Positions 11,501 through 34,790 of a stretch of DNA of 64,000 bases are shown here, in pieces. The stretch spans positions 25,333 through 89,332 of the forward strand of contig JASGKY010000038.1 of assembly GCA_049840435.1 (NCBI GenBank), in the 5' to 3' direction. Numbering within the stretch: the first letter of the stretch is position 1; every line of letters begins with the position of its first letter. The stretch is from Verrucomicrobiota bacterium. Lineage in GTDB: Bacteria; Verrucomicrobiota; Verrucomicrobiia; Limisphaerales; JADLHS01. Under the pieces are notes generated by a model that ran no database searches, was not told where the DNA came from, and saw nothing but the letters and a program-made list of their open reading frames with translations. A program made the position numbers and the translations under genes.

Positions 11501-14500
11501 ATAGGCGTCCGCCTCCAATCGCGTCACTGTAGTCAGATTGGTCAACGTGCCAAGATTCGTGGCGGTGGCCACTATGGACAACGTCGCCGCCGTGTTGCCG
11601 CCCATATTTAGTAGATTGCAAACCACCGTTTTCCCAAAGACCTGGACCGAACCTTGTGAGACTGTCGCGGAGACAAACGACACTCCGGGTGAAAGTGCAT
11701 TCGTCACCACTACCCCGGTCGCCGCCAGCGGGCCGATGTTGGTCACGCTGATCGCATACGTCACATTACCGCCAAGGCTGACCGGGTCGGGAGATTCTTG
11801 CACTCCCACCGCAAGATCATTTCGCAATTCCACCGCAAATGGATTGCTTACTCCGACATGTCCGCTGCCATCATCGGCGCGGAGCACCAGATTTGTTGTC
11901 GGCGCCGCAACCGTCACCGCTCCAACCCAAGCCCCGTTGCTGAACGGCCCAGAACTGACGGGTTGAATCGGAACTGCAAGAGCAGCATTTACGGTGTAGC
12001 GCAGATCACACAGAAAAATACTCGTATCACTGTTGTAAAAAGTATCCGGAAACGTATCCCCATTGGCGTAATAATACCCATTTACGATGGAGCCATATGG
12101 AAAGGTGGTGGGCCGGCTCGTACTGTAATAGTATGTGCCGCCATTCACGTAGAACGAAACCCGGTACGTGTTCCCCGCCAGCAGCACCAAAGGTGTGACA
12201 AGTGGCGTTTCAGTCCAGATGCCTTGCGTACCACTGACGTTTTGACTCGCCAACAAGGTGCCGGCATTGCTCCAAATCGAGACTTTCACCCCCGCAACCG
12301 AGCGAACATGTGTAACCGTCAGATTGGTCGCCGGCGTGAACGCGTAGCCCAGCGTGTAGTTGCCCGTGCCCGAATAATCAGGCGTCTGCGTGGTCAAGAG
12401 TGTATTTGTCGCCGTTCCACCACTGCTCGAACTCGTAAAATTGACCGACCCGATGAAGTTGCTGACCGTCGTCTCAAAGGCATCCTTGGCGGTGAGCTTC
12501 ATCGCAATCGGTTCATTGACATATTGCGGCGAGCTCACGGCGTCCCAAGTGAAATGATCCACTCCACGCGTGGTAAACTGCCACACCGGTCCTGGTGTGA
12601 CGCCAGCCTTACGGGCGACAATCCGCCAATAGTAAGTGGTTTGCGGCATCAGCAACGGCAAGGCCCAGGTCGTACTCGTAGTGCTCCCAATCAACTCCGC
12701 CGCGCCTGGTGTAGGCGTGGTACCGAAATAAACATCGTTTGTGATGGTCTCGCCAAGGACGGCGCCGGATTGCCACGCGAGATCGACGGTCTGAATCACA
12801 TTGGTCGCCAAATGCGGTGGAGCGGGGCTAAACGGCTCGAGTGGCGATTCATCATCCGTAATCATCAGGTTGGTCGAGCCAGTAGAAAAACCAGCCGCAC
12901 TAGCAACCACTGTCACGATCTGAGCACTGTCAATGTCAGTATCATCAACGATGGTCAAATTGAAGAGGGCATTGGTCTGTCCGGCGAGAATTGTGACCAC
13001 TGACGGCACAACCAATTCCGTCGCGTCCAAGGACGAAAGCGAAACTGGAAGATTGGTTGTCAATGTGCCAGCAATCCGCACCTGCCCGGCCCCGGCTAAG
13101 ACACCATTGCCTTCGCGGGCTGAGGCTGGCAACAAGACCACTAGATTGGTTGGTTCGTTATCCTGCACGATCACATTGGTAAAGCCTGTAGTCCAATTGG
13201 TGACGGAAGCGGTGATGGTCACCGGTTGCGGACCATCTATCTGTTTGTCATCAACCACGGTCACAGTGAATCCAGCTGAAGTTTGTCCAGCGGCAATAGT
13301 GGCGTAAGGCGAGACCAGCAGTTCGGTCGGATCACTCGCGCTGAGGCTGACTTGGATGTTCGCCGTCGGCGTCGGGCTTACACTCACGCTTCCAACCAAC
13401 ATCGTGCCGCTACCTTCCGTCAAACTCGCGGGTGCAGACACCGAAAGTGTCGCGGTTTCGTTATCCAACACAGTGATGGCAGCATCCGCGCTGGCATAGC
13501 CGCTGGCGGTGGCATGCAACGAGACCGCCTGCCCCCCATCAAGTTCCATATCATTTACAATGGTCAGGTTAAACGCAGCGTTCGTCTGTCCGGCGAGAAC
13601 GGTTACCGTTGCAGGCGTGGTCATTTCAGTTGGATCACTCGAAGTCAGGAGGACTGTCAAGTTGGTGGTTGGTGCCGGAAGCGCCGTTACCAGCCCGCCG
13701 ACTGTTCCATCCCCCTCCGTGGCCAAAGACGGAATGGTAAGTCGCAAAATTGTGGCCGGAGTGGCATCAATGGAAACACTGTCAATCGCCCAGTGGTCGT
13801 AGCCGGAGCCGCTGTGACTTTTTTGCCGCCACTGAAACATGGTTGCCGGGCCACGCGCGTTCACCGGAATAGCCGATGTCACCGCCGTCCAGTTGTAATA
13901 AGCTGTGGTGTCATAGCTGCCAAGAATCACCCACGAGACGCCGGCATTCGTAGAGGCCTCAAGCACGACACCTTCGTCGGGCAAGGCGTCCGCCATTTCC
14001 CAAGGCGAAGAACTGCCATTGGCCAGCCGGATCGAAAATCCGAGCCCGCCGCCACCAGTAGTATCAATGGGAATCGTCCGGGCAAACCGATTGCCGGAAT
14101 CGCCGAACCAGAGCGAATTGGGAGCCGATACCGCCCCCCCGTTATTATTCGCGATCACCGTGCTGCCAACCGTGCCACCAAAGGCCGACCACTGCGAGGC
14201 ATCCAAGCTTGGATCGAAATCATCGGACATGGTCCGCCCCACTACATTCAAGGAAACCGTGCGGGCTTGCACAAAGCTGGTGTTCTGATTGGAAAACCAG
14301 AGTGTGACGGTGTGGGTGCCGAGCGGCAGGCTGTTGGCAGCCGCACCAATCGTCGCTAGCACAGTGTTAGCAGGCCCACCCGGCATCAACACGCCACTGG
14401 TCGGCGTCACGCTCAGCCAAGCTGACGTATAGCTCAAAGACCAGCTCAAGCTAGCATTGCCCGTATTCGTGAGCCCAAATGAAACCGGGTTCGGACTGAA

Positions 14501-16714: not shown

Positions 16715-17074
16715 GATGAATTTCTGATCGGCCGCTTGCGCAGGATTATCAGCGGGCCCTAACTCACATACTGAATCCCGTAGAAGTTGCCCCGTGTTCG
16801 GTTTGAACTGTTAAAACAGGCTCCACCAGGCTTGTCAAACTCAATCCAGCCTAGCCGGTTAACACAAGGTTTGCACCAGAAGCAAAACCGCATCTGCCCA
16901 AGCCCTTTCTTTAAAGATTGGATCGAGTGATAAGTCACATTGCCGTTACTTTTATGCCCCGGACAGTTCCAACGGATCGCAATCTTTGCATTTGTCCCGG
17001 AAGAAACATTGACGTCGGCGAGCAATCGAGTTTACTCCCCGGCAGTTCGTTGGCTTCAGACTTTAAAACTGATC

Positions 17075-17824
17075 ATGAAACTCGTCCGTTGGACTACTTT
17101 GCGACTATTTGCGTTGGGTAACGCCCTGACACTCACCTCGGCTGTGGCTCAATCCTTCACCGCCACGTATGATTTCGCCCAAGTGAACACCAGTTCCGGA
17201 ACGACCGATCCCACGCCGCCACCAAGTGTCGTCGGCGTCACATTTGGTTCATTTAGTTCCACCGGCATGTCAGCCAACCCTAATGCCACCGTGCGTTTCT
17301 CCTTCACGTCACAACCACTTGGAGGCGTCAATGCCAGTGATGATTTCACGCAATTCACCGGCAGCCTCACGCCAACTGCCTACTTCGAGGTCGCAGTCAC
17401 GCCATTAAGCTTGGTGCAACTGCAACTCGATTCCATTGCGTTCACCGTCCAACGCTCCGGGACGGGCATCCGCAGCTATGCGGTGCGTTCCAGTCTGGAT
17501 GGCTATGCCGCCAATCTCGCCGCCAGTATCAGCACCGCCAACGCCAACCTCGGTGTCGGACCGGGCAATGAATTTCGCGTGCTGCTAGATTCCGTGACCA
17601 CGGCGCAGAATGGCAGCTTGGTAACCTTGGGGACGCCGTTCATCGGCCTTACTGCCCCGGTGACGTTCCGGTTTTACGGTTGGAATGCCGAAGGCACGGG
17701 CGGCACGTTCAGCGTGGATAATGTTGTCTTCAGCGGACGCACGGATAGCGTTCCCGAACCCAGTGCGACAGTTTTGCTGCTTGGAAGTCTGGCAGCTTTT
17801 GGCTTTTCTCAGCGGCGCCGTTAG
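17075..17824 (+). CDS. PEP-CTERM sorting-domain secreted protein
   Basis: Likely start is MKLVRWTTLRLFALGNALTLTSAVA (ATG 17075, signal peptide). The C-terminus VPEPSATVLLLGSLAAFGFSQRRR* is a PEP motif, a hydrophobic helix and an Arg cluster, i.e. an exosortase sorting signal. Confidence 0.85.
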   Translation: MKLVRWTTLRLFALGNALTLTSAVAQSFTATYDFAQVNTSSGTTDPTPPPSVVGVTFGSFSSTGMSANPNATVRFSFTSQPLGGVNASDDFTQFTGSLTPTAYFEVAVTPLSLVQLQLDSIAFTVQRSGTGIRSYAVRSSLDGYAANLAASISTANANLGVGPGNEFRVLLDSVTTAQNGSLVTLGTPFIGLTAPVTFRFYGWNAEGTGGTFSVDNVVFSGRTDSVPEPSATVLLLGSLAAFGFSQRRR

Positions 17825-17841
17825 AAACCCTGCGCTCCGGA

Positions 17842-19332
17842 TCAGTGCCCTGCGCTGGACAAATTTTGCACCGCACCGACCAATATATTGGGGAAGCACC
17901 CCAGCACGATCACAACGATGGCTAGCACCAAAAGCACTACTTGTGGCAGCAAGGAAGCCTCGGCGATCTTGGCCTTGTTCGGTTTATCCGCCACAACCAC
18001 ATAAATCTGCTTCAGCACCTTGAGGTAGTAGTAGAAGGATACCGCACTCATCGCCACCGCCAGAATCACCAACCAAAGCAGCCCGAGATTCGGCGCTCCA
18101 GTCTTCAACGCCGCCGCAAACAGATAGAACTTTCCGAAGAATCCCGCCAGCGGCGGAATGCCTGCCAGCGACAACAGGAATATCATCATCGCAAATGCCG
18201 CCAGCGGGGCTCGCTTGCTGAAACCGATAAAGCTCGACAGCTTGTCATCTCCGGCGCCGTCCTCGACCAACGCCACCACGCCAAACGCTCCAATCGTCGC
18301 CAGCCCATAGGTCGTCGCGTAATAAACCACGGAAGCGATCGCCTGCTCATCATGCGCCAACACACCGAGCAACATATAACCGGCGTGCGCAATCGCTGAG
18401 TAAGCCAGCAGCCGTTTCACACTGCTTTGTGCGAGCGCGACCAGATTCCCCAGCACCATCGAGAGTGCAGCCAGCAACGCAATGACCGGCGTCCAGCCCC
18501 GCGCAAAATCCCGGAACGCCCCACTGCCTTCCACCCCCGCAAAACCGATCATCATGATCTTGGCGAAGATGAAAAAGCTCGCGAGCTTCGAGCCGGAAGC
18601 GATGAACGCGGCGCTTTGTGACGGTGCGCCTTCATAGGCATCCGGCGCCCACAGATGAAACGGCACCGCCGCCACCTTGAAGCCAAAGCCGATCACCGTC
18701 ATCACAATGGCCACTACCAGCAACGGATCAAGCCCCTTGCCCGCCAGCGCGGCCGCAATCGCGTGCAGATTGGTTGAACCGGACAACCCGTAAATCAAAC
18801 TCAGTCCAAACAACATGAACGCCGCCGCCATGCCGCCGAACAGAAAGTATTTCAGCGCCGCTTCCGCCGATTTGATGTTCCGCTTGTTGAACGCCGTCAG
18901 GATGTAGAGCGACAGGCTCGTCAATTCGAGCGCGATAAAAATCATCAGCACGTCTTCCGCACTCACCAGAAACATCATCCCTACCGTCGCCAGTAAAATC
19001 AGCGCCAGATATTCGCCGGCGTGCGGCGTGAACTTTGCCTCCAACGATACCAGCACCGTGCCGATCGTCAGCCCGAGCAGGCATATCTTCACGATTTGAG
19101 TCAGTGGGCTCACCACCAGCATCCCGTGCAATGCGTCCGCATGCTGCGGATTGATCAGCATCCAGACCATCGCAGCCGTAGATCCTGCAATCGCAACCAG
19201 GCCGCCGACCAGCAGCCGCATCCGCGTTTCCAGCCCGCGCATCGAAGTCAGATCAATCGCCAACACCGCCAGCGCCGTGAGCACGACGATAGTTTCCGGC
19301 ACTGCCAGCTTGAGCAACTCAGCGTAGCTCAT
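17842..19332 (-). CDS. nuoN: NADH-quinone oxidoreductase subunit N
   Basis: Polytopic antiporter-like membrane protein and the last gene of the nuo run. The likely start MSYAELLKLAVPE (ATG 19330-19332) overlaps the upstream stop as ATGA. Motifs include ALELTSLSLYILTAF. Confidence 0.85.
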   Translation of the reverse strand: MSYAELLKLAVPETIVVLTALAVLAIDLTSMRGLETRMRLLVGGLVAIAGSTAAMVWMLINPQHADALHGMLVVSPLTQIVKICLLGLTIGTVLVSLEAKFTPHAGEYLALILLATVGMMFLVSAEDVLMIFIALELTSLSLYILTAFNKRNIKSAEAALKYFLFGGMAAAFMLFGLSLIYGLSGSTNLHAIAAALAGKGLDPLLVVAIVMTVIGFGFKVAAVPFHLWAPDAYEGAPSQSAAFIASGSKLASFFIFAKIMMIGFAGVEGSGAFRDFARGWTPVIALLAALSMVLGNLVALAQSSVKRLLAYSAIAHAGYMLLGVLAHDEQAIASVVYYATTYGLATIGAFGVVALVEDGAGDDKLSSFIGFSKRAPLAAFAMMIFLLSLAGIPPLAGFFGKFYLFAAALKTGAPNLGLLWLVILAVAMSAVSFYYYLKVLKQIYVVVADKPNKAKIAEASLLPQVVLLVLAIVVIVLGCFPNILVGAVQNLSSAGH

Positions 19333-20840
19333 TGCACGCCTCCCTTCTTCACCCAATCAAACAAAGGCGAATTAAAACTCGGAATGATCACATCCAAAAG
19401 AATCCGTGGATACAATCCCACCACCAGCGAGACGGCGATCAGCAGCACCGCCCCGAGGCGCTCCGGGATTGAAATCGGAGCGCCGGTCTCCGACCCGGCG
19501 TGTTCCTCATCATCGTGCGAAGCTGATGTTCCATGCTCCTGTTCTCCGAAGAACGCTTTCTGCATCGCGCGCAGTGTATAGGCCACGCCAATCACGATCC
19601 CGATACCCGTAATCACCGCTAGCGTCGGGAACGCCTGCCACGCGCCAACAATCACCTGCAGCTCCGCGATGAATCCGCTGAAACCCGGCAGCCCCATCGA
19701 GGCGCAACCCGCGATCACAAACGTCACTGCCGCGAACGGCATCGCCTTCACCAGATTCATTCCCTCCAGCGTGGCGAGTTCGCGTGTGTGCGTGCGTTCA
19801 TAAACCATCCGTCCCACCACCGCAAACAGCAGTCCCGCGATGATGCCGTGCGAGAACATCTGCAACACCGCACCGCTCAGCCCGATGGTGTTCAACGTCA
19901 CCAAGCCGAGCATCACGAAGCCCATGTGACTCACGCTCGAATAGCCGATGACGAATTTGAAATCCTTCTGCACCAGTGCCACCAGCGCGCCATACACGAT
20001 GCCAATGACTGCCAGCGCCGCGATCCACATCTTCCAATGTTCCAATCCTTCCGGGAACAACGTCATCGCCACGCGCAGGCAGCCGTAAGCGCCCAATTTC
20101 ATTACGACACCCGCCAGCAGCATCGAAGCAGCCGTCGGCGCGGCCACGTGACCGGTTGGCGCCCACGTGTGAAACGGCCACATACCAGCAAGAATTGCGA
20201 AACCCACGAACACCAATGGGAACGCCCACATCTGAAAGCTGTGCGGAAACGGATACTTCGCCAGTTCCAGCAAGTTCATCGTGTGCCCGCCGGACACCAC
20301 ATACGCCGCGATCAAGCCGATCAGCACCATCGCGCTGCCAATGAACGAATACAGCGCCAGCTTCATCGCGCCGTATTCCTTCCGGGTCGAACCCCAGATC
20401 GCGATGATAAAATACTTCGGCACGATGGCGATTTCGTAGAACACAAATAGCAGGAACAGATCAAAGCTCAGGAACACGCCATACACGCCACCGATGAGGG
20501 CGAGATAAAACGCAAAGAACTCCTTCGCCCGATGTTCGATGTTCCAAGAAAAAAGAATCCCGCCCACCGCCGCCAACCCCGTGAGCAACACGAGCGTCAG
20601 GCTGATGCCATCTGCCGCGAGGTGATATTCCAGCCCCAGTGACGGAATCCACGGCGCTTTGGCGATCGTAAGAATTTGCCCCTTCTCAAAATCGAAAAAG
20701 CCCGCCAGTGCGACCAGCAATCCCGCCACCGCCGTGGTCATGGCAACCTTGCGCGCCGCCGACGCGTTGCCCTTCGGCAGGAGCATCAGCACCAGCACGC
20801 CCAAAAATGAAATGTAAACGGTCCAGGCTAACATGATCAA
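19329..20840 (-). CDS. nuoM: NADH-quinone oxidoreductase subunit M, paralogue 2
   Basis: ~501-503 aa. NuoM-type N-terminal signature APWIPSLGLEYHLAADGISLTLVLLTGL, then 14-TM antiporter-like composition. The start is TTG 20840 or ATG 20834, 2 nt after the HEAT-gene stop. Confidence 0.85.
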   Translation of the reverse strand: MIMLAWTVYISFLGVLVLMLLPKGNASAARKVAMTTAVAGLLVALAGFFDFEKGQILTIAKAPWIPSLGLEYHLAADGISLTLVLLTGLAAVGGILFSWNIEHRAKEFFAFYLALIGGVYGVFLSFDLFLLFVFYEIAIVPKYFIIAIWGSTRKEYGAMKLALYSFIGSAMVLIGLIAAYVVSGGHTMNLLELAKYPFPHSFQMWAFPLVFVGFAILAGMWPFHTWAPTGHVAAPTAASMLLAGVVMKLGAYGCLRVAMTLFPEGLEHWKMWIAALAVIGIVYGALVALVQKDFKFVIGYSSVSHMGFVMLGLVTLNTIGLSGAVLQMFSHGIIAGLLFAVVGRMVYERTHTRELATLEGMNLVKAMPFAAVTFVIAGCASMGLPGFSGFIAELQVIVGAWQAFPTLAVITGIGIVIGVAYTLRAMQKAFFGEQEHGTSASHDDEEHAGSETGAPISIPERLGAVLLIAVSLVVGLYPRILLDVIIPSFNSPLFDWVKKGGVQ

Positions 20841-21935
20841 TTCGTTCGAGTCACCGGTATCAAGCCCCTGATTTCGGCAATCATGGTGTAACGCTCTTGC
20901 GCATTACAGTTCGTCCACAAGTTGCGAACCCGTGTTAAAACCTCTTGCGGAGGTTTTATCAACTCATCGTACTCATTTGGAATGCGAAGTGGCCTAGCCT
21001 TCTCCATTGATAGCAATAGTTGCTGATCGTTTGTAGAAAGTACAATCAAAGATAAGACTGCAGAGACATTGACCTTCCCATCCTGGGTTACCATCCGTTT
21101 TTCTATTTCTGGTATGGCGCCGCGTCCCTGACTCCCCATCAACATGAACCCAAACGCTGCGTTTGCTGCCAAAGAATCGTTTGGTACTCAGAAGCGAACG
21201 ACGCAGTGCTGGCTCAATTAGTTCTGAAGGCTGTCCAATTCTTCCCAATGCCCTCACCGCAAAAGGAGAAATCCGCTCCCAATTTGGATCGTCGAGCGTT
21301 GCGATTATCTGCGGCACCAGCATGACATTTGAAGGACCGAGATGCCTGACTGCTTGCAAAGCATAACTTCGCCACCAGCGATTATCGCTTTGAAGCGCAT
21401 TGCTAAAAATGCTTAGTGAGCCTGGATTCGCAGCCAATGCCTGGAAAACAGAACGCACGCTTACCTCATTGCCATGAATCATGGCCTCAAGCTGTGGCAT
21501 CGCGCTTTTGCCACGCTCTCCCAAGGCAAGAAAGCCCAACACCGCTTGGTTTCCCAATTCCATTCGCTTCTCCAACTTGGCTTCCATGAACTTAAACAGG
21601 AGCTTCGTCGGCCAATCTTGAAGACTGTAGAAGGTTCGTTCTGCCTTCAGAGCAGACTTCAAGCGGGCAATCAAAAACGGCACAGCAGGTTCACCTATAC
21701 TCTTAACAGCGCTGGCAGCTTCGCTATCCAGCACAGGATTGAGATCAACCACGTCAAACCGTCCAGTATTCAGTTTCGCCAACCAAGTTGAAAGCGCCTT
21801 CCCTTCAAAATGCGGCTCGCGAGGAGTTGAAAACCACAACGACGCGCCAAAAACCACCACGCACACAACCACGATCATCCCCCACAGTTTCAACTGTGAA
21901 TGTCTTCGCAATAGGCTTTGTTTATCTTGGGACAT
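20837..21935 (-). pseudogene. Membrane-anchored HEAT/armadillo-repeat protein embedded in the nuo operon (one frame break as assembled)
   Basis: ORFs 20994-21935 and 20837-21172 join near 21170-21185 (...ALRRSLLSTK... then ...AANAAFGFMLMGSQGRGAIPEIEKRM...). 1099 nt implies one extra nt, giving ~365 aa. There is an N-terminal TM helix (LKLWGMIVVVCVVVFGASLWF) and HEAT-like repeats (LVPQIIATLDDPNWERISPFAVRALGRIGQP). GC is clearly lower than in the flanks. Confidence 0.7.
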
Positions 21936-21940
21936 CAGAA

Positions 21941-23488
21941 CTAAAACTTCAGTTGCTCCACCATCCGCACCGCGGTCGAATTAATCACGTCCAACACGAG
22001 GCGCGGGTAGAGGCCGAGCACGAACATCAGCGCGATGGGCACACCCACCAGCACGCGCTCGCGCAATGTCAGGTCGGGCAGCTTTGCCCACTTTTCATTC
22101 AGCGGCCCGGCAAAGACGCGTTGGATGATCGTCAGCAGGAAAATCGCCGTGACCAGAATCCCGATCACCGATAACACCGCCGCCCACGGCGTCAGCGGGA
22201 ACACCCCCTTAAAAATCAAGAATTCACCAACGAAACCATTCAAGCCCGGCAGCCCCAGCGACGAGAACAGCGCAATGCCCATGAGCCCACAGAAAACGGG
22301 AATGGTCTTTCGCAGTCCGCCAAAGTCGTTCAGCCCGCGAATGCCACCCGTGCGTTGCTCGATGAAGCTCACAAACATAAACAGCGTTGCCGCTGTGAGG
22401 CCGTGATTGAACATCTGGAGGAATACGCCGTTGAGCGCTGCAGCTTTCTCCGTAGCGAACTCGGGTGCGTTCGTGAACTTCGCCACCGCGAACACGGCCA
22501 GCAAACAGTAGCCAAGATGGTTGATGGACGAATACGCCAGGATGCGCTTCAAGTCGCGCTGCGCGAACGCGGCGCACGCCGAGAATACAATCGTGATGAC
22601 CGCCAGCCACAGCAACGGCGTCAGCACCCAGTTGATCTGTTGCGGAAAGATCGGCAGCAGGATGCGCAGGAAACCATACACGCCCATCTTCGACATCACG
22701 CCCGTGAGCAGCATCGTCACCGGCGACGGCGCTTCGGAATACGTCGCAGGCAACCACGTGTGAAACGGCAGCAACGGCACTTTCACCGCGAAGCCCAATA
22801 GCACGCCACCAAAAATGATCAATGCGAGCGGCTTCGTGTTCAAATCATACCAACCAAGCTTTGCGGAGAGTGCGGTGGCAAGCGAACTGTCTTTGCCCAT
22901 CGCAGCCAGTTCGATGAAATCCATTTTGCCGGTCGCGAGAAAGATGGCAAGGAACGCCAACAGCATTGCCACGCTACCGACCATCGTATAGACGAAGAAT
23001 TGCGTCGCCGCCGGGCCGCGATTCATCCCGCCCCAGAGCCGGACGAGGAAGAAAGCCGGAATCAGGCTCAGTTCCCAAAAGATGAACCAATGGAAAAAGT
23101 TCAACGCCGTAAACGTGCCGATGAGTCCCGCCTGCAGGAATAGAACCAGTCCGTGGTAGAGTTGCACACGATCCGTGATGCGGTCCGAAACCAGTAACGC
23201 CATCGGCGTAATGATGCTCGCCAGCAACACCATCAGCAGGCTCAGCCCATCCACGCCGACGAAATACTGCACGCCGAGGGCCGGAATCCAATCAGCGCGC
23301 TCAACAAACTGCAGCGCGCCGCTCGACGCATCAAACGATCGCCATAATCCGAACGCCAACGCCAAGGAAAGGAAACTGAATCCAAGCGCCATGCGTCGCA
23401 CCATTTGCTTATCCTGTAATCCGACGACAATGATGCCGCCAACAATTGGCAACAGCGTAAGAAGCGTGAGGATGGCCAACCCGTTCAC
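21941..23488 (-). CDS. nuoM: NADH-quinone oxidoreductase subunit M, paralogue 1
   Basis: 515 aa. NuoM signature ADWIPALGVQYFVGVDGLSLLMVLLASI. The start overlaps the nuoL stop (ATGA). Confidence 0.88.
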   Translation of the reverse strand: MNGLAILTLLTLLPIVGGIIVVGLQDKQMVRRMALGFSFLSLALAFGLWRSFDASSGALQFVERADWIPALGVQYFVGVDGLSLLMVLLASIITPMALLVSDRITDRVQLYHGLVLFLQAGLIGTFTALNFFHWFIFWELSLIPAFFLVRLWGGMNRGPAATQFFVYTMVGSVAMLLAFLAIFLATGKMDFIELAAMGKDSSLATALSAKLGWYDLNTKPLALIIFGGVLLGFAVKVPLLPFHTWLPATYSEAPSPVTMLLTGVMSKMGVYGFLRILLPIFPQQINWVLTPLLWLAVITIVFSACAAFAQRDLKRILAYSSINHLGYCLLAVFAVAKFTNAPEFATEKAAALNGVFLQMFNHGLTAATLFMFVSFIEQRTGGIRGLNDFGGLRKTIPVFCGLMGIALFSSLGLPGLNGFVGEFLIFKGVFPLTPWAAVLSVIGILVTAIFLLTIIQRVFAGPLNEKWAKLPDLTLRERVLVGVPIALMFVLGLYPRLVLDVINSTAVRMVEQLKF

Positions 23489-25596
23489 TTGCCACCTCCC
23501 CAGATTAGGAACAACACCAGCACCACCAGCGCGACGCCGATGACGCGAAGATAATTTTGCACGTGCCCATCCTGCAATCGCGACAACAACGAACCGCCCT
23601 TCGACACCCGTTCACAACTCTGGTCAAAGCCAAGGTTGATAACGAATTCGTCAATCGCCCGATTCACCCAGGCAAAGGCCAATGTTACCAAGGAAACCAG
23701 TTTCACTGCCCCACCCCAAATCCATTCATCCAGAAACGCGCACGCCTTTGCCGCCCATGCGTTGAAGCGGATGACGGTCATTTCGTATAGCTCATCAATG
23801 CCGTATTTCCGCGCCAGCCACGTGTGGATGCCGAGCGGCATCTTCTCCAGCACATCTGGTTCATCCGCGCGCTTGCGTTGCACGAAACCATAAAGCCCGA
23901 TTCCCAAACCGCCACCCACCAAAACGACGAGCCCCGAAACCATCATGATCTGGACAACTTCGCGGGTGAAACCTTCCTCGTGGTGCGAACCAAGGAATTC
24001 CTGAAACCACGGCCATGCTGGGGTGCCGATCGCACCGAGCCCGATGGCGCACACTGCGAGAATGACGAGCGGCACAGTCATCGAGCGCGGACTCTCGTGC
24101 GGCTCGTGTTCGCTCTTCAATGCCACCAGCTCAGGGGTTCTGATGTGCTGGGTATCATGCGACACGTGACTGCGATAGTTGCCCCAGAACACCAACGCCA
24201 TCTGTCGCGTCATGTAAAACGCCGTCAGTAACGCGCCCGCCACGCCAAGACAAAACGGAAGGTGCGACACGGACCAACCATGCGCCGCGTGCAGGATGGC
24301 GTCCTTGCTCCAGAACCCGGAGAAGAACAACGGCACGCCCGCCAGCGCCATCATGCCGACGGCATAGGTCAAAAACGTCACCGGCATGTAATTGCGAATC
24401 CCGCCCATCTTCCGGATATCCTGCTCGTGATGGCAGCCGTGAATCACCGAGCCGGCCCCGATGAACAGTAGCGCCTTGAAAAAGGCGTGCGTGATGAGAT
24501 GGAACATTCCCACTGCCACGCCGCCTGTGCCAAGCCCCATCATCATGAAACCAAGTTGCGAACAGGTTGAGTATGCAAGGATGCGTTTGATGTCGTTTTG
24601 CGCGACGGCAATAGACGCGGCAAACACGGCGGTGATGGCACCGATCCAAGTTACAACTTGCAGGGCAACCGAAACGGGCGGCAACGCGCTGTCCCCCATT
24701 AGTCCCTGCCATGTTGATTCAAATATCGGATAAGTTCGCGCCACAAGGAACACGCCCGCCGCCACCATTGTCGCGGCGTGGATGAGCGCGCTGACTGGCG
24801 TCGGGCCTTCCATCGCATCCGGCAACCAGACATGCAGCGGAAACTGCCCGGACTTACCCATCGCACCAATAAAGATCAGAATTCCAATCAAGGTCGAAAC
24901 CGCGAGACCAGCGACCGTAGTCTGCATGATCATCTTAGTGAGCGCGGTTGTTTCCAAGCAGCCCGCGCCGTTGTCATAGAACAGCAGCGTGCCGGTCTCG
25001 TGATACAGCCACATGATGCCGAGGAAGAAAAACACGTCGCCGATGCGCGTGGTGATGAAAGCCTTCTTCGCCGCCGCCGCAGCGCTGGGTTTGTGATACC
25101 AGAAGCCGATCAGCAGATACGACGCGAGGCCGACCAATTCCCAACTCATGAAGAGCATGAGCAGATTGTTGGCAATGACGATGCCCAACATCGCCGCCGC
25201 GAACAGCGACAAGAACGTGAAGAAGCGCGTGAAGCTCTCGTCGTGCGCCATGTAGCCGATGCTGTAGATGAAGATCAACGTGCCAACGAACGTGACCATC
25301 ACGAGCATCACCGCCGTCAACGGATCGAGCACCCAACCGAGTTTAAGCACCCCGGCCTCGCCCGCCGCGAATTGCAGCCAGGCGAAATTGAAAAACTCTT
25401 TCGCACTTTCATGACCGTTGTGGTGGATCGCATGAGCAAAAGCGCACAGCGACAGCAAGAACGCACCGATCATCGAAACGATGGCCAGCGAAGCGGAGGC
25501 TTTGCGAAACCGCTGCGGCAGCAAGGCGCTCACCCCTGCCGCCAGCAACGGCAGCGCAGGAATCAGCCAGAGGTTTTTGACAATCCAAACTTCCAT
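23485..25596 (-). CDS. nuoL: NADH-quinone oxidoreductase subunit L (elongated, 703 aa)
   Basis: NuoL signature SWELVGLASYLLIGFWYHKPSAAAAAKKAFITTRIGD. C-terminal amphipathic (lateral-helix) region and final TM (YLRVIGVALVVLVLFLIW). About 90 aa longer than E. coli NuoL (613 aa). Confidence 0.9.
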   Translation of the reverse strand: MEVWIVKNLWLIPALPLLAAGVSALLPQRFRKASASLAIVSMIGAFLLSLCAFAHAIHHNGHESAKEFFNFAWLQFAAGEAGVLKLGWVLDPLTAVMLVMVTFVGTLIFIYSIGYMAHDESFTRFFTFLSLFAAAMLGIVIANNLLMLFMSWELVGLASYLLIGFWYHKPSAAAAAKKAFITTRIGDVFFFLGIMWLYHETGTLLFYDNGAGCLETTALTKMIMQTTVAGLAVSTLIGILIFIGAMGKSGQFPLHVWLPDAMEGPTPVSALIHAATMVAAGVFLVARTYPIFESTWQGLMGDSALPPVSVALQVVTWIGAITAVFAASIAVAQNDIKRILAYSTCSQLGFMMMGLGTGGVAVGMFHLITHAFFKALLFIGAGSVIHGCHHEQDIRKMGGIRNYMPVTFLTYAVGMMALAGVPLFFSGFWSKDAILHAAHGWSVSHLPFCLGVAGALLTAFYMTRQMALVFWGNYRSHVSHDTQHIRTPELVALKSEHEPHESPRSMTVPLVILAVCAIGLGAIGTPAWPWFQEFLGSHHEEGFTREVVQIMMVSGLVVLVGGGLGIGLYGFVQRKRADEPDVLEKMPLGIHTWLARKYGIDELYEMTVIRFNAWAAKACAFLDEWIWGGAVKLVSLVTLAFAWVNRAIDEFVINLGFDQSCERVSKGGSLLSRLQDGHVQNYLRVIGVALVVLVLFLIWGGGK

Positions 25597-25597
25597 T

Positions 25598-25909
25598 TCA
25601 GCCCTTCAAAGAATTCACTTCATCCACATTCGTGGTCTTGTAATGCCGATAGATCGCAATAATCAGCGCGAGGCCGACGGCGGCTTCGGCCGCGGCAACC
25701 GCGATCGCAAAGATAACAAACATGATTCCGGTGAGCGCTTCGGGATTCGCGCCGTAGCGCCAGAAGGCGATGAAGTTCAGGTTCGCGGCGTTCAACATCA
25801 ACTCAATGCCGATCAGGACGATGATGGCGTTCCGCCGCGTCAATGCCCCCGCCAAGCCGATGGCGAAGAGAAACGCGCTGAGGAGCAGATAGCTGGCGAG
25901 TGGCGTCAT
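25598..25909 (-). CDS. nuoK: NADH-quinone oxidoreductase subunit K
   Basis: 103 aa with 3 TM helices. Motif: [27 protein letters not shown]. Confidence 0.92.
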
Positions 25910-26400
25910 TTCTTTTCCTCCCTCATCGCGATAATCACCGCGCCGATCAGCGCTGCCGTCAACAAAAGCCCGAGCACTTCGAGCGGCAAAACAAATTTTG
26001 TCATCAAGTCCTGGCCGATCTGTTCCACGGTGGCGGACGACGAGGGCGGCAACGCGCGCTTGCTGGCAAAGCTATGATTGATGGCACAGGCCAGGAGCGT
26101 GAACACTGACATGGCGATCGCCGCGCCCCAAAACCAGGATGCGGAGAAGACGGATTTTTCCGGCGCTTCCCCACCTCGGGTGAGCAACACGGCAAATACG
26201 ATCAAGATCGCCACGGCGCCGACATAGACGAGAATTTGGGTGAGGCCCACGAACTGGGCGTCGAGTTGCAGATAGGCGGCGGCGAGCCCGGCAAAGGCCA
26301 TGGCTACCGCCAAGGCGCTGTGCACGAGATTGCGCAGGGTCATCGCTGCCGTGGCTGCGGCGATAATCAAGATGGCGATGATGGCAAAGGAAAACGTCAT
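25906..26400 (-). CDS. nuoJ: NADH-quinone oxidoreductase subunit J
   Basis: ~164 aa. The likely start MTFSFAII (ATG 26398-26400) overlaps the nuoH stop as ATGA. Motif: [40 protein letters not shown]. Confidence 0.88.
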
Positions 26401-27587
26401 GTCAGTCCGCAAAGCGATAGGTGCGTTTGCCCGATGTCTTTGCGTTCAAACTGGGGCTTGCCCAAGAATAAATAGGCGGTAACCAGAAGCGCGCCACTCG
26501 TCAGCCAGCGCGTGAAGCCCGGGCCAGTGAAATGCCAGAGCGCGGCGGCGACCAAATTGATGAGCACCATCGGGATCATAAATTTCCACGCAAAATTCAT
26601 GAGTTGATCCTGGCGCATCCGCGGCAGCGTGCCCCGCGTCCAAATGAACAGGCACATCAGCGCCAGTAGTTTGAGGAAGAACCAGCCCCACGACGGAATA
26701 AAATCCAGCGCGGCGAAGGGCGCATTCCAGCCGCCCAAGAACAGCGTGATGCCCAGCCCACTGATGGCGAACAAGCTCAGGTATTCGGCGAGGAAGAACA
26801 ACGCGAACTTAAAGCCGGAGTATTCGATGAAGTAACCCGCGATGATTTCTGATTCGCCTTCGGGCAGATCGAATGGCGAACGGTTGGCTTCAGCGTTGGC
26901 AGCGATCAGGAACAGCACGAAGCCGACAAAGCCCCACGGGGTAAAAATAAACCAGTCCGGCAAAAATCCGAAGTGTGTGCCCTGCGCCAGCACAATCTTG
27001 GTGAGCGAAAGTGTGCCAGTGATCATCACCACGGAAACCGTCGCCAGAATGAGCGGGATTTCGTAACTGACCATCTGCGCCACGGCGCGCATCGCGCCGA
27101 GAAGCGCATACTTGTTGCGGCTCGACCAACCCGCCATGAAGACCGCGAGTTCCGACGCAGCCCCAACCGCGAAGAAGAACAGCAGTCCCGCATCGAGATC
27201 GAGCACGACCATGTTCCGGCCAATCGGCAACACCGCGTAAACCGTAAACGCAGTCACCACCAAAATCACCGGGGCGAGCAAGTGTACGACTTTGTCGGCG
27301 GCGCGTGGGACGACGTCCTCTTTAATCAACGCCTTGATGCCATCAGCCGCCGGCTGCAAAAAACCGAAAGGCCCGACACGATTCGGACCGTAACGGTTTT
27401 GGATTCGCCCCAACCCTTTGCGCTCCATGATGGTCATGATCGCAAACAAGGCCGGAAACACCGCCAGGATCGGGATCAGAGATAACAGGATGGAAACGAT
27501 CGGCAACCAATTCTCCGGCACAACGCCCTGCAACTGGCCGAGCAGCCAGTGTTTGAGATTTACGAAGATTTGGTCGAGATCAGGCAT
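26397..27587 (-). CDS. nuoH: NADH-quinone oxidoreductase subunit H
   Basis: 396 aa. Motif: MERKGLGRIQNRYGPNRVGPFGFLQPAADGIKALIKEDVVP. Its start overlaps the nuoI stop by 1 nt. Confidence 0.92.
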   Translation of the reverse strand: MPDLDQIFVNLKHWLLGQLQGVVPENWLPIVSILLSLIPILAVFPALFAIMTIMERKGLGRIQNRYGPNRVGPFGFLQPAADGIKALIKEDVVPRAADKVVHLLAPVILVVTAFTVYAVLPIGRNMVVLDLDAGLLFFFAVGAASELAVFMAGWSSRNKYALLGAMRAVAQMVSYEIPLILATVSVVMITGTLSLTKIVLAQGTHFGFLPDWFIFTPWGFVGFVLFLIAANAEANRSPFDLPEGESEIIAGYFIEYSGFKFALFFLAEYLSLFAISGLGITLFLGGWNAPFAALDFIPSWGWFFLKLLALMCLFIWTRGTLPRMRQDQLMNFAWKFMIPMVLINLVAAALWHFTGPGFTRWLTSGALLVTAYLFLGKPQFERKDIGQTHLSLCGLT

Positions 27588-28246
27588 CAGACGGTGGCCG
27601 GTGCTGCGGTTGATTGAGTTGCCGTCGCCGCTTTGGCTTTGGATTCAGCAGCAGCCTTGGCCTTTGCCTCAGCGTCGGCCTTGGCCTTGGCTTGTGCCTT
27701 CGCGATTTCTGCCGCCAGCACGGCATCAGACGCGGCGGCGTCCGTCGGATGGATGGTGCGGTAATGATCGTTGGATTTGGCGAGTTGTTCCTTATGCACC
27801 AGCAGGTCGCTGAAGCGGTTGGTCCGGCTCCATTTGTAATCCGTGTCCATCTTGATGGATTCAAACGGACAGACCTCGGCGCAGATGCCGCAACTCATGC
27901 AGACGGAGAGGTCAATGTCGAACGTCGCCGGATAAAACTGCGCCTGCCCCTTGTAGTCCGGCTTCTTGTCCTTGCTCTTGACGATGTAGATGCACTTGGG
28001 CGGGCATTCCTTCTCGCAAATCTGGCAGGAGACGCAGCGCAGGCCTTTTTGCCAGTCGTCGCCATCATAGACGAGGAAAGGAAACTGCCGGGCGTTCTCG
28101 ATCTGGGGAATCGTTTCCTCCGGGTATTGTACCGTGGTCAAACGCTCAGCACTGACGTAGCTGCCGAGGAAATTCCTCGCCGTCTCCGCCATGCCTTTGA
28201 TGATGCCTGCGCCGAGCATGAAATAAATGTATGGTTTCAACGCCAA
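27587..28246 (-). CDS. nuoI: NADH-quinone oxidoreductase subunit I (2x[4Fe-4S]) with an Ala/Lys-rich C-terminal extension
   Basis: TTVQYPEE plus two CxxCxxCxxxCP motifs (CVSCQICEKECP, CMSCGICAEVCP). 219 aa from a TTG start, so the start is uncertain. The last ~50 aa are low complexity (AKAQAKAKADAEAKAKAAAESKAKAATA). Confidence 0.88.
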   Translation of the reverse strand: MALKPYIYFMLGAGIIKGMAETARNFLGSYVSAERLTTVQYPEETIPQIENARQFPFLVYDGDDWQKGLRCVSCQICEKECPPKCIYIVKSKDKKPDYKGQAQFYPATFDIDLSVCMSCGICAEVCPFESIKMDTDYKWSRTNRFSDLLVHKEQLAKSNDHYRTIHPTDAAASDAVLAAEIAKAQAKAKADAEAKAKAAAESKAKAATATQSTAAPATV

Positions 28247-28396
28247 AGTCTAAAGCTGCGAAACTGCACTGCCGCTGGCGATAGATATTCTTTGGTCATG
28301 GATTCGGAATCCTGTTTGTTCCGCACCGAATGTGCGCAGAGTAAGGTTGTCTGGCGTCGGAAGCAAGCCGACGCTGTCGCAACCCTTGAACCGGTC

Positions 28397-29392
28397 TCAA
28401 GCGCGATAGCTGGAAACCGCCCGCATGTATTGCGCCCGCTCGAACGCCGCCGGATCGGGGCAGTTCTTCTGGCTCATGCTGCCTTGCAGTTGCTCCACCG
28501 ATTCGTAGTCGTGTTCGTCCATCCAAGCGCGAATTTCATTCTCCACTGTGGCAATGTGCTTCACGCCGTGCCGCAGCAATGCCGAGCACATCATCGTCAC
28601 ATCCGCCCCGGCCATGAGCATCTTGATCGCATCGGTGGCGCGGTGAATCCCACTGGTCGCCGCCAGACTGAGCCCGACTTGATCGCGCAGGATCGCAATC
28701 CAACGCAAGGGCACGCGCATCGCCATCGGCGTGCTTAACAAAATGTTCGGGGTCACTTCGAGCGACTCGAGATCCATGTCCGGCTGATAAAAGCGGTTGA
28801 ACAGCGTCAATCCGTCCGCGCCCGCCGCTTCGAGGCGGCGCGCCATGTTGGCAAAGTTCGTGAAAAACGGACTAAGTTTCACCGCGACCGGAATGTTCAC
28901 CTGCTGTTTTACCGACCGCAGGATTTCCACATAGGTGTCCTCGATACGGATGGAGCTAAGCGACGGATCGGTGGGAATCCAATAGATGTTCAGTTCGATG
29001 GCATCCGCGCCAGCTTTCTCGATCTTTTGCGCGTATTCCACCCAGCCGCCCGGAGTGGAGCCGTTCAAGCTGGCAATAATGGGAATTTGCACCGCAGCCT
29101 TCGCCTTCTGGATGTTCTCCAGATACACCTCCGGCCCGACGTGAAACTCGGATGGTTCCGGAAAATACGTCAACGCCTCGGCGAAGCTCTCGGTACCCTG
29201 CGTCAGGCTCTCGAACAATTCCCGCCGTTCCAGCGAAAGCTGCTCCTCAAACAACGAGTGCATCACGACGGCTGCCGCCCCCGCGTCTTCCATGCGTTTG
29301 AAGTTATCCACGTTCTCCGTGAGCGGCTGCGCCGCCGACGGCACGAGCGGGGAACGAAGTTTCAAACCGAGATAGGTTGTGCTGAGATTCAT
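28397..29392 (-). CDS. Dihydroorotate dehydrogenase-family (class 1 DHOD/DPD-like TIM-barrel) flavoprotein of unknown role
   Basis: 331 aa: MNLSTTYLGLKLRSPLVPSA..., IIASLNG, GADAIELNIY, PVAVKLSPFF, GADGLTLFNR, ATSGIHRATDAIKMLMAGA. It starts 18 nt downstream of PFOR. Confidence 0.75.
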   Translation of the reverse strand: MNLSTTYLGLKLRSPLVPSAAQPLTENVDNFKRMEDAGAAAVVMHSLFEEQLSLERRELFESLTQGTESFAEALTYFPEPSEFHVGPEVYLENIQKAKAAVQIPIIASLNGSTPGGWVEYAQKIEKAGADAIELNIYWIPTDPSLSSIRIEDTYVEILRSVKQQVNIPVAVKLSPFFTNFANMARRLEAAGADGLTLFNRFYQPDMDLESLEVTPNILLSTPMAMRVPLRWIAILRDQVGLSLAATSGIHRATDAIKMLMAGADVTMMCSALLRHGVKHIATVENEIRAWMDEHDYESVEQLQGSMSQKNCPDPAAFERAQYMRAVSSYRA

Positions 29393-29410
29393 AATGATTA
29401 GTTCCTTGGC

Positions 29411-33071
<3,661 letters not shown>

Positions 33072-33151
33072 TCATCCCTTGCCAAACAGTGAGCGAAAAT
33101 TGTTTTGCTGCGCCAAGATTTGCAATACGCCGTCCGCGCCTCAACTTTCGT

Positions 33152-34240
33152 TCACGGTTTGATTGGCGTCGTGGCCAGAACGATCCACTCCTTCGGCTCC
33201 GCTTGGGTTGGTTTGAAACCAAGCTGCTGCGTGAGCGCGTCAGCATCATACATTGTGAAACCTTTCCAGCCCTCCTCACCAGGCTTGAAGCCAAGCCCCG
33301 CAGCCCAAGGCTGGCCTTCCAACTTCACATCTTCGATTAACTCGCCCGCCCCAATGCGAATGCTTCGATCACAACGAAACTTTCTTTCGCCACTCTCGTA
33401 AATCGCCACCACGCCCGTCTCTGCATCATCACCGATCAGTGCCGCAATGGAAGTCGTCGCCAGTTTTTTGGAAATAAATTCCGCCAACGTGGTGAGGTTT
33501 GCGACGTCCTTGTCTTCCCAAAAGATCGAGCCGTCTATAACCACATAGCCGTTGTCGGTCGCATGCGCCATGAAGTTTCCTTCGATTGTCGCATTCGTTG
33601 TCGCGAGAATGAAAAGTTTTTGTTTGTTGCGCTCGCCATAAAACTCCACGCATGCCTGCGTCACCCCCGCAACATCCGACGATTTGACCAGCACCATCGT
33701 GCCATCGTCATCGGGCAGCACGTTGGTGATTTTCGCCAGTGAAGTCGAAGTCTCGTCAGCCGCTTTATTATCCCCGTGCCCGGTGAGTTCCTTTACCCAT
33801 GTGATCAAATTAGCAACGGCAGTGACTTTCTGGGAAATTTTATCAATCGAAGCCACGATCCCCCACAAGACAAAAAATGCGATGATGAGCCAGGTCTTCC
33901 ACCCGACCTTGACCTCCCGCACACTGCCTGACGAGCTGTCTTCCGCTTCCGAATCTTCCGCCTCGGCGGGGGTTAGAACGGGAGCAACCGAAGGCGGCGT
34001 ATGGGGGCGACTGATACTTAAACCTGAAGGCCGCATCGGCGCGGGCGCAGGCGGTGGTGGAGGTGCGCTTGGTGCGGGGATCGGCGTCGGGGGCAACAGT
34101 TGTTGCAAGAGGACATTGGCGCGCGCCGTGCCATCGACACCACAGACCGGGCAATTCACACTGAACGGCATTTGGCCATGCACCGGCTCGACATCAAACT
34201 TGAACTTCTGACCACAATCGCACTGGATTTTGATTTCCAT
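33152..34240 (-). CDS. Hypothetical membrane protein: N-terminal zinc ribbon, Pro-rich linker, one TM helix, ~210-aa uncharacterised C-terminal domain
   Basis: 362 aa: MEIKIQCDCGQKFKF...VNCPVCG (CxC...CxxC), a PPTPIPAPSAPPPPPAPAP linker and TM helix WKTWLIIAFFVLWGIVASI. I do not recognise the C-terminal domain. Confidence 0.6.
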   Translation of the reverse strand: MEIKIQCDCGQKFKFDVEPVHGQMPFSVNCPVCGVDGTARANVLLQQLLPPTPIPAPSAPPPPPAPAPMRPSGLSISRPHTPPSVAPVLTPAEAEDSEAEDSSSGSVREVKVGWKTWLIIAFFVLWGIVASIDKISQKVTAVANLITWVKELTGHGDNKAADETSTSLAKITNVLPDDDGTMVLVKSSDVAGVTQACVEFYGERNKQKLFILATTNATIEGNFMAHATDNGYVVIDGSIFWEDKDVANLTTLAEFISKKLATTSIAALIGDDAETGVVAIYESGERKFRCDRSIRIGAGELIEDVKLEGQPWAAGLGFKPGEEGWKGFTMYDADALTQQLGFKPTQAEPKEWIVLATTPIKP

Positions 34241-34328
34241 AGGCCGCGTTTCTGACCAGCGCGGGTTTGATGATGCGCCGGGAGTAAAGCAAGCTTAAAG
34301 CGATTGCTTTGAGGTAGCAACCCCGCTG

Positions 34329-34790
34329 TCAGGGCCTCAGCTTCAATACCGGTGCTGGATGTTCATGCAACGGGTTTCGGGTAAAGTCTTCGGCTTCCAA
34401 CCAGCCCAGCCACACTTCGATCAACCCTAGGACTTCGCGGAGATCAAGGTGCTCCTGAACGGAGGGATATTGGCTCAAGTTGGTCCGGGCGAGCTTGAAC
34501 AGCGCAGCCGAGGGACGCAACCGTTCCTTCTGGAGATGAACGTATGCACCTGCCAGCTGGATAAGCCCCTTGTAAAAATTCCCGGCCGGCCCGTGCTTAT
34601 CCGCCAACCAGAGTTCTTCAAGCACATCGTGGGCTTCATAGAACTGCTGCTGGTTGAAGCAATCGAAATAGCCCAGATAATGCGCGTCCAGACCGCCGCC
34701 TTGGAAAGCCGCGATGCGTTCGGCGATTTTGCCGCTCTTCTTGCTCACGCCCTCCAGCCTAAACAACGCGCCCCGCTGGGCCAAAGGCAA
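34329..34790 (-). CDS. DUF309-family protein
   Basis: 153 aa with the core FNQQQFYEAHDVLEELW...GLIQLAGAYVHLQ, typical of DUF309. Confidence 0.6.
   Translation of the reverse strand: MPLAQRGALFRLEGVSKKSGKIAERIAAFQGGGLDAHYLGYFDCFNQQQFYEAHDVLEELWLADKHGPAGNFYKGLIQLAGAYVHLQKERLRPSAALFKLARTNLSQYPSVQEHLDLREVLGLIEVWLGWLEAEDFTRNPLHEHPAPVLKLRP

Follow-up and report, generated by a model that had tools for sequence, protein, structure and literature searches.

A likely four-pump, 2M-type complex I membrane arm with two NuoM paralogues and a lengthened NuoL lateral helix in a Verrucomicrobiota genome

Background

The question raised by a gene cluster on contig JASGKY010000038.1 (Verrucomicrobiota bacterium, assembly GCA_049840435.1) is whether two NuoM paralogues and a long NuoL together build a complex I with a fourth proton pump. 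The stretch that was analysed, 64,000 nucleotides (nt) at positions 25,333 to 89,332 of the contig, is called the window, and all coordinates refer to it. In complex I, NuoN, NuoM and NuoL stand in a row with one proton path each and are clamped by the lateral helix (HL) of NuoL. A type with two NuoM subunits, the 2M type, was reportedly described by Chadwick, Hemp, Fischer and Orphan in 2018 (ISME J 12:2668). Its hallmarks are the second NuoM and a NuoL with an HL insertion of 26 amino acids (aa) (PMC9040806, PMC6606698); these had been named correctly in an earlier description of the locus, made from the letters alone (the preliminary description), and both are found here. The type is known from Acidobacterium capsulatum (PMC11636273), Chloroflexi (PMC7117926) and Nitrospira (PMC6606698).

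Results and discussion

The gene cluster

The cluster is considered, with good confidence, to encode the membrane arm (NuoH, NuoJ, NuoK, NuoL, two NuoM and NuoN) together with NuoI of a four-pump complex I of the 2M type. Nine co-directional open reading frames (ORFs) were placed on the minus strand at 17842-28246 by the ORF list and family profiles, in the order nuoI-H-J-K-L-Ma-(HEAT)-Mb-N, and their coordinates bear out the preliminary description. The two nuoM copies are called Ma and Mb. According to the ORF coordinates, neighbouring genes overlap by 1-4 nt or are separated by 1-5 nt. The tight packing that had been claimed therefore stands, with the qualification that the HEAT/nuoM junction is tight only by way of a second HEAT frame; the HEAT-repeat gene is not the single intact ORF that had been assumed, being divided into ORFs of 313 and 111 aa in different frames. 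The probable start of nuoN is Met9, which gives an ATGA overlap with nuoMb, and the lysine of transmembrane helix (TM) 12 is present in NuoN (K409).

The first gene of the cluster had been called nuoI. Its product scores 75 bits on the NCBIfam NuoI models, below their cut-off of 113, and aligns with E. coli NuoI at 31% identity over 147 aa. It was accepted as a divergent NuoI because this alignment keeps both CxxCxxCxxxCP motifs.

All eight nuo ORFs are full length and unbroken. The ratio of nonsynonymous to synonymous substitution rates (dN/dS) was 0.015-0.09 for all nuo genes against the 92%-identical relative L084 (nuoI-like 0.047, nuoMa 0.067, nuoMb 0.092). NCBI has a protein identical to this NuoL (100%) under the name 'MAG: ... 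[Verrucomicrobiota bacterium]', where MAG stands for metagenome-assembled genome. The preliminary description had seen no nuoA-G gene adjacent to the cluster, and none was found anywhere in the 64-kb window. Promoter and terminator scanning of 17000-34500 gave counts no higher than background.

Two true NuoM copies

Judged by their sequences, the two paralogues are both true NuoM, an orthologous pair that has been kept across phyla and is under purifying selection. The N-terminal NuoM signatures pointed out earlier are present in both the 515-aa and the 503-aa ORF. On the NuoM profile TIGR01972 (NDH_I_M) the copies score 472 bits (Ma) and 463 bits (Mb) against a cut-off of 264, compared with 132-145 bits on NDH_I_N and 146-176 bits on the MrpD models. 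Their best PDB matches (phmmer) are NuoM/ND4/NdhD chains at 274-280 bits; no NuoN chain exceeds 89 bits, and the MrpD chains lie at 88-132 bits. Neighbour joining of 78 sequences (200 bootstraps, MrpD sequences left out) recovered a single NuoM clade with 99.5% bootstrap support and a separate NuoN clade with 100%. The test set beforehand was whether one copy would group with NuoN or MrpD rather than NuoM: neither does so by profiles or PDB matches, and in the tree NuoM stands apart from NuoN.

Within the NuoM clade, the Ma orthologues of Verrucomicrobiota and Acidobacteriaceae form one group (96.5%) and the Mb orthologues another (100%). Ma and Mb share 31% identity. Since each copy has its own orthologue clade across phyla, the pair is old and is neither a recent nor an assembly duplicate, as had been surmised from the divergence of the copies. 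The TM5 glutamate, the TM8 lysine and the NuoM-specific TM12 glutamate are kept in both; the conserved residues are E139, K236, K267 and E422 in Ma and E136, K248 and E393 in Mb.

A NuoL lateral helix longer by one module

In the alignments, the NuoL carries one additional 26-residue HL module, which co-occurs with a second nuoM in relatives. At 703 aa against 613 aa in E. coli, the protein is about 90 aa longer, as had been noticed; by pairwise alignment 26 of these residues lie in HL and the remainder in small differences and three loops, which are near 208-217 (about 10 aa), near 298-310 (13 aa) and at 486-504 (19 aa). Alignment with E. coli NuoL by MAFFT opened a single gap of exactly 26 columns inside HL. 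The HL segment (the equivalent of E. coli F541-L591) is 79 aa long in the window and 50 aa in E. coli.

The same segment was measured in 80 NuoL sequences from representative genomes. It is 53-55 aa long in every NuoL that precedes a single nuoM (15 single-M relatives), three Chloroflexi excepted, and 78-83 aa where two nuoM follow, with one case of 106 aa. Genes downstream of nuoL were visible in 62 related loci: 53 combine a long HL with two nuoM, three a long HL with one, six a short HL with one, and none a short HL with two. The association is strong (Fisher p = 1.4e-6, for loci that are not phylogenetically independent), and it is not absolute, because three Chloroflexi loci pair a long HL with one nuoM.

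An AlphaFold2 (AF2) monomer model of the NuoL, built from a diverse 78-sequence alignment (pLDDT 79.7, pTM 0.79), predicts that the extra HL residues lengthen the helix rather than loop out. Residues 597-674 form one continuous 78-residue helix, with pLDDT 77-86 over aa 601-650, the inserted part, and the model superposes on NuoL/NdhF/ND5 chains with TM-scores of 0.82-0.85 (normalised to the target). An earlier model from 55 close homologues (pLDDT 56) was used for secondary structure only. The hydrophobic moment of the helix is similar to that of E. coli HL. A helix of canonical length, with the extra residues placed in the hydrophilic loop at aa 477-505, had been named as the outcome that would speak against the extension. 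The loop, whose pLDDT falls below 50 near aa 479-483, is indeed enlarged, besides the HL insertion and not instead of it.

The motifs FLDEWIWGG (aa 621-629) and AIDEFVINLG (aa 647-656) were found exactly where they had been reported (nt 23629-23736), with a spacing between their aspartates, D623 and D649, of exactly 26. Read as a sign of duplication, the repeat is at chance level in the window NuoL alone (ungapped self-similarity at offset 26 of -5, p = 0.15 for that offset) and gains its support at the level of the family, where offset 26 is the top self-similarity offset among 64 long-HL NuoL sequences (z = 3.2). In Chloroflexi NuoL, the pattern D-x-x-[IV]-[IV]-D-G-x-V-N occurs twice with period 26. 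Both aspartates are conserved throughout the long-HL family; D623 is invariant in homologue sets A1 and A3 and present in at least 90% of set A2. Multiple alignment shifts the 26-column gap one module further than the pairwise alignment from which the module boundaries in Table 1 were taken, so that either of the two modules may be the added one.

D649 aligns with E. coli D563-P564-L565-N566, and mutagenesis in E. coli has placed the contact of HL with NuoM in the residues that follow P564 (PMC3274701). Because the D649 module aligns with this contact region, the duplicated unit is read as the NuoM-contact module.

Two further NuoL proteins depart from the common lengths. In the Anaerolineales MAG locus L078 (1600-3774) the HL segment reaches 106 aa and holds three 26-residue modules; the locus has two nuoM and no adjacent nuoN, and the third module hints at yet another pump subunit. 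The segment of 102 aa in L067 (9965-12184) consists of two modules and an unrelated 23-aa insert.

The operon and its neighbours among relatives

Relatives were collected by a genome scan and by a metagenome scan with the related NuoD of locus L007 as query. The window belongs to a large 2M clade of Verrucomicrobiota (MAGs labelled Limisphaerales, Opitutae, Chthoniobacterales and Udaeobacter) and Acidobacteriaceae, in which dozens of loci carry the usual operon nuoA-B-C-D-I-H-J-K-L-Ma-Mb-N, without nuoEFG. The position of nuoI before nuoH, singled out earlier as an inversion, is real and not peculiar to this locus: 79 loci share it, with nuoEFG in 0/79, and nuoH precedes nuoI in nine loci, all of them canonical single-M operons (nuoEFG in 3/9). 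Since the order is found in these 79 loci and its reverse only in canonical operons, it is a trait of the clade. The 2M type, placed in the preliminary description in 'Nitrospirae and a few other lineages', is indeed a known type and is more widespread than that wording allows, being common also in Verrucomicrobiota, Acidobacteriaceae and Chloroflexota. No description of a 2M complex I in Verrucomicrobia was found in the literature covered, which did not include the original 2018 survey.

In the window lineage (NuoL identity 92% to L084 and 84% to L002), nuoABCD is not upstream, and genes for a pyruvate:ferredoxin oxidoreductase (PFOR) and a dihydroorotate dehydrogenase (DHOD)-like protein precede nuoI. 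The operon is split in other relatives as well, either with ABCDI apart from H-N or in the order L-M-M-N-A-B-C-D-I, and split 2M operons are known in Chloroflexi (PMC7117926). Neither the contig of L084 nor that of L002 was among the 80 other loci that the L007 NuoD query brought up in the metagenomes, and the genes around detached nuoABCD sets or solitary nuoD genes had no counterpart in the window. Lone nuoD-like genes, 76-79% identical to the NuoD of the 2M clade and free of further nuo genes for several kb around, were seen in L122, L124, L125, L132, L133 and L139.

PFOR and the DHOD-like gene are adjacent to the cluster in the window, L002, L003 and L084. The DHOD-like gene keeps the same position in L002 and L084 (dN/dS 0.020), and PFOR is intact there, at 1203-1215 aa. 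Loci with either or both genes in other orientations (L010, L012, L016, L028, L032, L034, L044, L045 and L161) include several Acidobacteriaceae and Opitutae, where the genes lie upstream or downstream of the 2M operon and on either strand. An adjacency that recurs in such varied arrangements suggests a functional link independent of gene order.

Table 1 Features of the nuo cluster and its upstream neighbours in the window
Feature	Coordinates	Strand	Basis or remark
PFOR	29411..33032	-	POR_N, POR, EKR and TPP_enzyme_C domains; two 1-nt deletions
DHOD-like gene (PRK07565 family), directly upstream of nuoI	28397..29392	-	NF005741 501 bits
nuoI-like 2x[4Fe-4S] subunit, 219 aa, Ala/Lys-rich C-terminal tail	27587..28246	-	Fer4 families; NuoI models E 1e-21
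nuoH, 396 aa	26397..27587	-	PF00146 380 bits; NF004741 339 bits (cut-off 305)
nuoJ, 168 aa by longest ORF, probable start Met5	25906..26412	-	PF00499 113 bits
nuoK, 103 aa	25598..25909	-	PF00420 101 bits; NF004320 113 bits (cut-off 57)
nuoL, long form, 703 aa	23485..25596	-	NF005141 642 bits (cut-off 556)
Hydrophilic NuoL loop, aa 477-505, before TM helix aa 504-523	24082..24168	-	About 19 extra residues vs E. coli
HL of NuoL, aa 597-674; TM16 next, aa 679-701	23575..23808	-	AF2 model
Extra HL module, aa 611-636 by pairwise alignment, contains D623	23689..23766	-	26 gap columns vs E. coli
Second HL module, aa 637-662, contains D649	23611..23688	-	Pairwise and multiple alignments
nuoM copy a (Ma), 515 aa, adjoins nuoL	21941..23488	-	TIGR01972 472 bits
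HEAT-repeat gene, N-terminal membrane anchor, frame-broken	20837..21935	-	PF13646
nuoM copy b (Mb), 503 aa, adjoins nuoN	19329..20840	-	TIGR01972 463 bits
nuoN, 504 aa by longest ORF	17842..19356	-	TIGR01770 404 bits (cut-off 333)

Proposed enzyme and electron donor

In the assembled enzyme the subunit order would be NuoL-Ma-Mb-NuoN. The 26 added residues, at 1.5 Å each, would lengthen HL by about 39 Å, roughly one subunit width, so that it could run past the two NuoM subunits and offer each of them a contact module with an aspartate (D623 and D649), and TM16 at the end of HL would still anchor at the proximal end. Such an enzyme might move five protons per quinone reduced (two electrons) instead of four, the number that has been proposed for the 2M type (PMC9040806, PMC6606698). 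A ferredoxin hypothesis has been put forward for 2M complex I (PMC9040806, PMC6606698, PMC7784846). Reduced ferredoxin is also the most likely donor here, because the operon family lacks NuoEFG and PFOR is a recurrent neighbour; the lower potential of ferredoxin would supply the energy for a fifth proton. NuoA, NuoB, NuoC and NuoD, indispensable for quinone reduction, would have to be encoded elsewhere in the genome.

Several points weigh against this reading. Ferredoxin dependence is argued from synteny and the absence of nuoEFG from the cluster only, and a complete enzyme is assumed from relatives, nuoABCD being absent from the 64-kb window. The incorporation of both NuoM subunits and the stoichiometry of five protons are hypotheses of the field, and no solved structure or purified 2M complex was found among the structure matches or in the literature. 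The three Chloroflexota loci with a long HL (L055, L067 and L083) have one nuoM between nuoL and nuoN; a second nuoM may lie elsewhere there, or the helix extension may be possible without a second copy. Compared with L084, the PFOR of the window lacks one base at each of two places, about 32270 and, beside a G7 run, about 32027, and is spread over three frames (tblastn); if these deletions are real, the local source of ferredoxin is a pseudogene.

A further point concerns the channel of Mb. The TM7 lysine is essential in E. coli NuoM (K234), and in Mb it is replaced by L217. A new lysine, K142, stands in TM5 at the position of E. coli M150, six residues past the TM5 glutamate. This pair of TM5 lysine and TM7 leucine is found in 16 of 18 second NuoM copies, the loss and the gain co-varying, and the TM5 lysine occurs in no first copy and in no K234-bearing NuoM. 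In canonical verrucomicrobial operons and in some Firmicutes, the single NuoM has a lysine at neither the TM7 nor the TM5 site.

Alternative explanations

The alternatives considered (NADH input, reverse operation and alternative use of the NuoM copies) are all rated below a four-pump complex fed by ferredoxin. The one that survives best keeps the four pumps and lets NADH supply the electrons by way of a NuoEFG whose genes lie elsewhere. Operons of the canonical 14-subunit type, nuoEFG included, occur in MAGs labelled Verrucomicrobiia/Verrucomicrobiae (L060, L075, L079), in Acidobacterium capsulatum a canonical complex is expressed besides the 2M complex (PMC11636273), and a separate Nitrospira nuoF has been suggested to serve the 2M complex (PMC6606698). 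Against such an arrangement, nuoE, nuoF and nuoG are missing from every one of the 79 I-before-H clusters, PFOR is the recurrent neighbour, and, by standard potentials, the free energy available with a menaquinone-type acceptor would fall short of five protons. NADH input is therefore regarded as rather unlikely, and as the most serious competitor.

The complex could also run in reverse, with the proton-motive force acting through four channels to drive quinol electrons up to ferredoxin and PFOR acting as a pyruvate synthase. Such a role was suggested for the 2M complex of Nitrospira (PMC6606698, PMC7784846, PMC9040806), and the PFOR found upstream is a reversible enzyme. The genes of the window do not lend themselves to the idea: genes for GH95, GH2, rhamnogalacturonan lyase and GDSL esterase proteins point weakly to a polysaccharide-degrading heterotroph, and no autotrophy genes were seen, both being weak arguments from 64 kb only. 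Reverse operation is judged unlikely.

Still less probable, to the point of being doubtful, is the use of the two NuoM copies as alternative isoforms, one per complex, in an enzyme with three pumps whose long HL serves another purpose. The lysine in TM7 of Ma and the leucine in Mb could suit the copies to different conditions, the three Chloroflexi loci combine a long HL with a single adjacent nuoM, and no structure displays four pumps. However, the extra HL module is found in 53/53 loci with two nuoM and a second nuoM in 0/6 loci with a short HL; the copies are co-transcribed neighbours whose orthologous pair has been retained across three phyla; and the module that was duplicated is the one by which E. 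coli NuoL contacts NuoM. A helix extension of one subunit width would be left unexplained.

Two further readings, a remnant operon that is orphaned or in decay and an independent Mrp-like cation/proton antiporter module without a redox arm, are highly improbable: nuoABCD is indeed not in the window, frameshifts lie nearby (two in PFOR, one in the HEAT gene, a split amidohydrolase) and foreign genes have been inserted in and beside the operon, but the eight nuo ORFs are intact and conserved against a 92%-identical relative (dN/dS 0.015-0.09), NuoH and NuoI would be pointless without a Q module, the same operon is split otherwise in relatives (as reported for Chloroflexi, PMC7117926), no MrpB-, E-, F- or G-type gene is in the cluster, and the frameshifts are single-base indels, one beside a run of seven G (G7) and another at AAA, such as assembly errors would give.

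The HEAT-repeat gene and the surroundings of the cluster

By comparison of loci, the HEAT gene between the two nuoM copies is a sublineage-specific insertion: it is a 1.1-kb addition that is absent from L084 and L002, the closest relatives by NuoL. One extra base near 21180-21182 (window 'ACCAAACGAT' vs 'ACGAAT-GAT') separates the 313-aa ORF (20994-21935) from the 111-aa ORF. Intact orthologues at the same Ma/Mb site have 346 aa (92% identity, L168-170) and 367 aa (59%, L167), and the gene is under purifying selection (dN/dS 0.16). It was considered whether the gene might be a random passenger. The Ma/Mb junction does host unrelated inserted ORFs in other lineages; on the other side, the HEAT gene has been kept at the same site in two lineages, with a dN/dS that indicates constraint. 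By inspection of the sequences, the small inserts at this junction (L031, L049, L164, L021 and L053) look like ORF6N-type proteins (183-189 aa), IS200/RAYT-type transposases and antitoxins, and the site resembles a hot spot for insertions. In one of the HEAT-bearing assemblies (L165-L170), PIN-toxin genes and another HEAT paralogue (29% identical) stand between nuoK and nuoL.

The frame breaks in PFOR (two), in the HEAT gene (one) and in an amidohydrolase gene look like assembly indels. They are single-base changes, and two of them adjoin short homopolymers (G7 in one case, AAA in the other), as assembly errors would. The amidohydrolase is an Amidohydro_3 gene on the plus strand that is split into two overlapping ORFs at 38494-40111, probably by a frameshift.

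Two other features adjoin the cluster. The spacer between the DHOD-like gene and nuoI (28247-28396, minus strand) contains a stretch conserved in three lineages that includes a hairpin, GCGUCGG-CUUGCUU-CCGACGC, in which the substitutions of L084 and L002 retain G-U pairing; it had no Rfam match, and its folding energy was no better than that of shuffled sequences (z = -0.5). Beyond nuoN, an insertion of 12.9 kb relative to L084 (4927-17863) parts this gene from a PALP-enzyme gene. On its minus strand it carries the gene of a repetitive protein of 3722 aa (5546-16714) and an unassigned ORF of 184 aa (4983-5537), and on its plus strand an unassigned ORF of 294 aa (16940-17824).

A more specific view of this sublineage can be formulated from these neighbours, although it is thought improbable. 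PFOR and the DHOD-like protein would be co-expressed with nuoIHJKLMMN and pass ferredoxin electrons directly to the complex, forming a dedicated pyruvate-to-quinone module with the four-pump complex; the membrane-anchored HEAT protein would serve the extra NuoM, either as a lineage-specific accessory subunit or in assembly; and the move of the lysine in Mb from TM7 to TM5 would mark a distinct pump module.

Comparison with known systems

With the Mrp antiporter the cluster shares homologous antiporter-like subunits (MrpA/MrpD matches of 88-200 bits). It differs in having NuoH and NuoI and in lacking MrpB, E, F and G, and the Mrp models stay far below their cut-offs and are outscored by a wide margin by the NuoL, NuoM and NuoN models. 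Complex_I_3 of 'Ca. Manganitrophaceae', with five pumps, and the rhizobial 'green' complex I likewise combine the 26-aa HL insertion with extra antiporter-like subunits (PMC9040806). Two MrpD-like subunits replace NuoL in those complexes, whereas the window has a true NuoL (642 bits on NF005141).

Cyanobacterial and chloroplast NDH-1, with 11 core subunits, resembles the proposed enzyme in having no NADH module and ferredoxin as donor. The best match of the window NuoL in the PDB, by sequence as well as by fold, is Thermosynechococcus NdhF1 (452 bits, TM-score 0.85). NDH-1L has one NdhD per complex and subunits specific to oxygenic phototrophs that were not seen in the window, and its HL is short (53 aa in L061, L066, L070, L071 and L080). 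Canonical NDH-1, as in E. coli and in L060, L075 and L079, has homologous NuoH-N subunits with the same channel residues in NuoL, Ma and NuoN. It is characterised by one NuoM, an HL of 50-55 aa, nuoH before nuoI and the presence of nuoEFG, and the window departs from it in all four.

The 2M type is matched in the second nuoM between nuoL and nuoN, in the 26-aa HL insertion and in the lack of nuoEFG in the cluster. Acidobacteriaceae 2M loci of the same layout have NuoL proteins 57-63% identical to that of the window. Unlike in the usual 2M operon, nuoABCD is detached, PFOR and the DHOD-like gene lie upstream of nuoI, and the HEAT gene stands between the nuoM genes. The Chloroflexi operon also differs, being A-H-J-K-L-M-M-N with nuoB, C, D and I elsewhere, and the Nitrospira 'clade 3' operons are without nuoH, E and F and have an enlarged nuoG (PMC6606698).

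The locus thus adds little that is new in kind, the 2M type having been described already in 2018. The 2M complex is the main natural case of a respiratory enzyme altering its proton stoichiometry by an added pump module. What the comparison contributes is that Acidobacteriaceae and the Verrucomicrobiota of soil and freshwater commonly have the type, that the HL extension is a clean 26-residue repeat of the NuoM-contact module whose number mostly tracks that of nuoM, and that the recurrent PFOR neighbour supports ferredoxin as the donor. From these points, concrete predictions follow for the architecture of the 2M complex, whether it is solved or modelled as a multimer.

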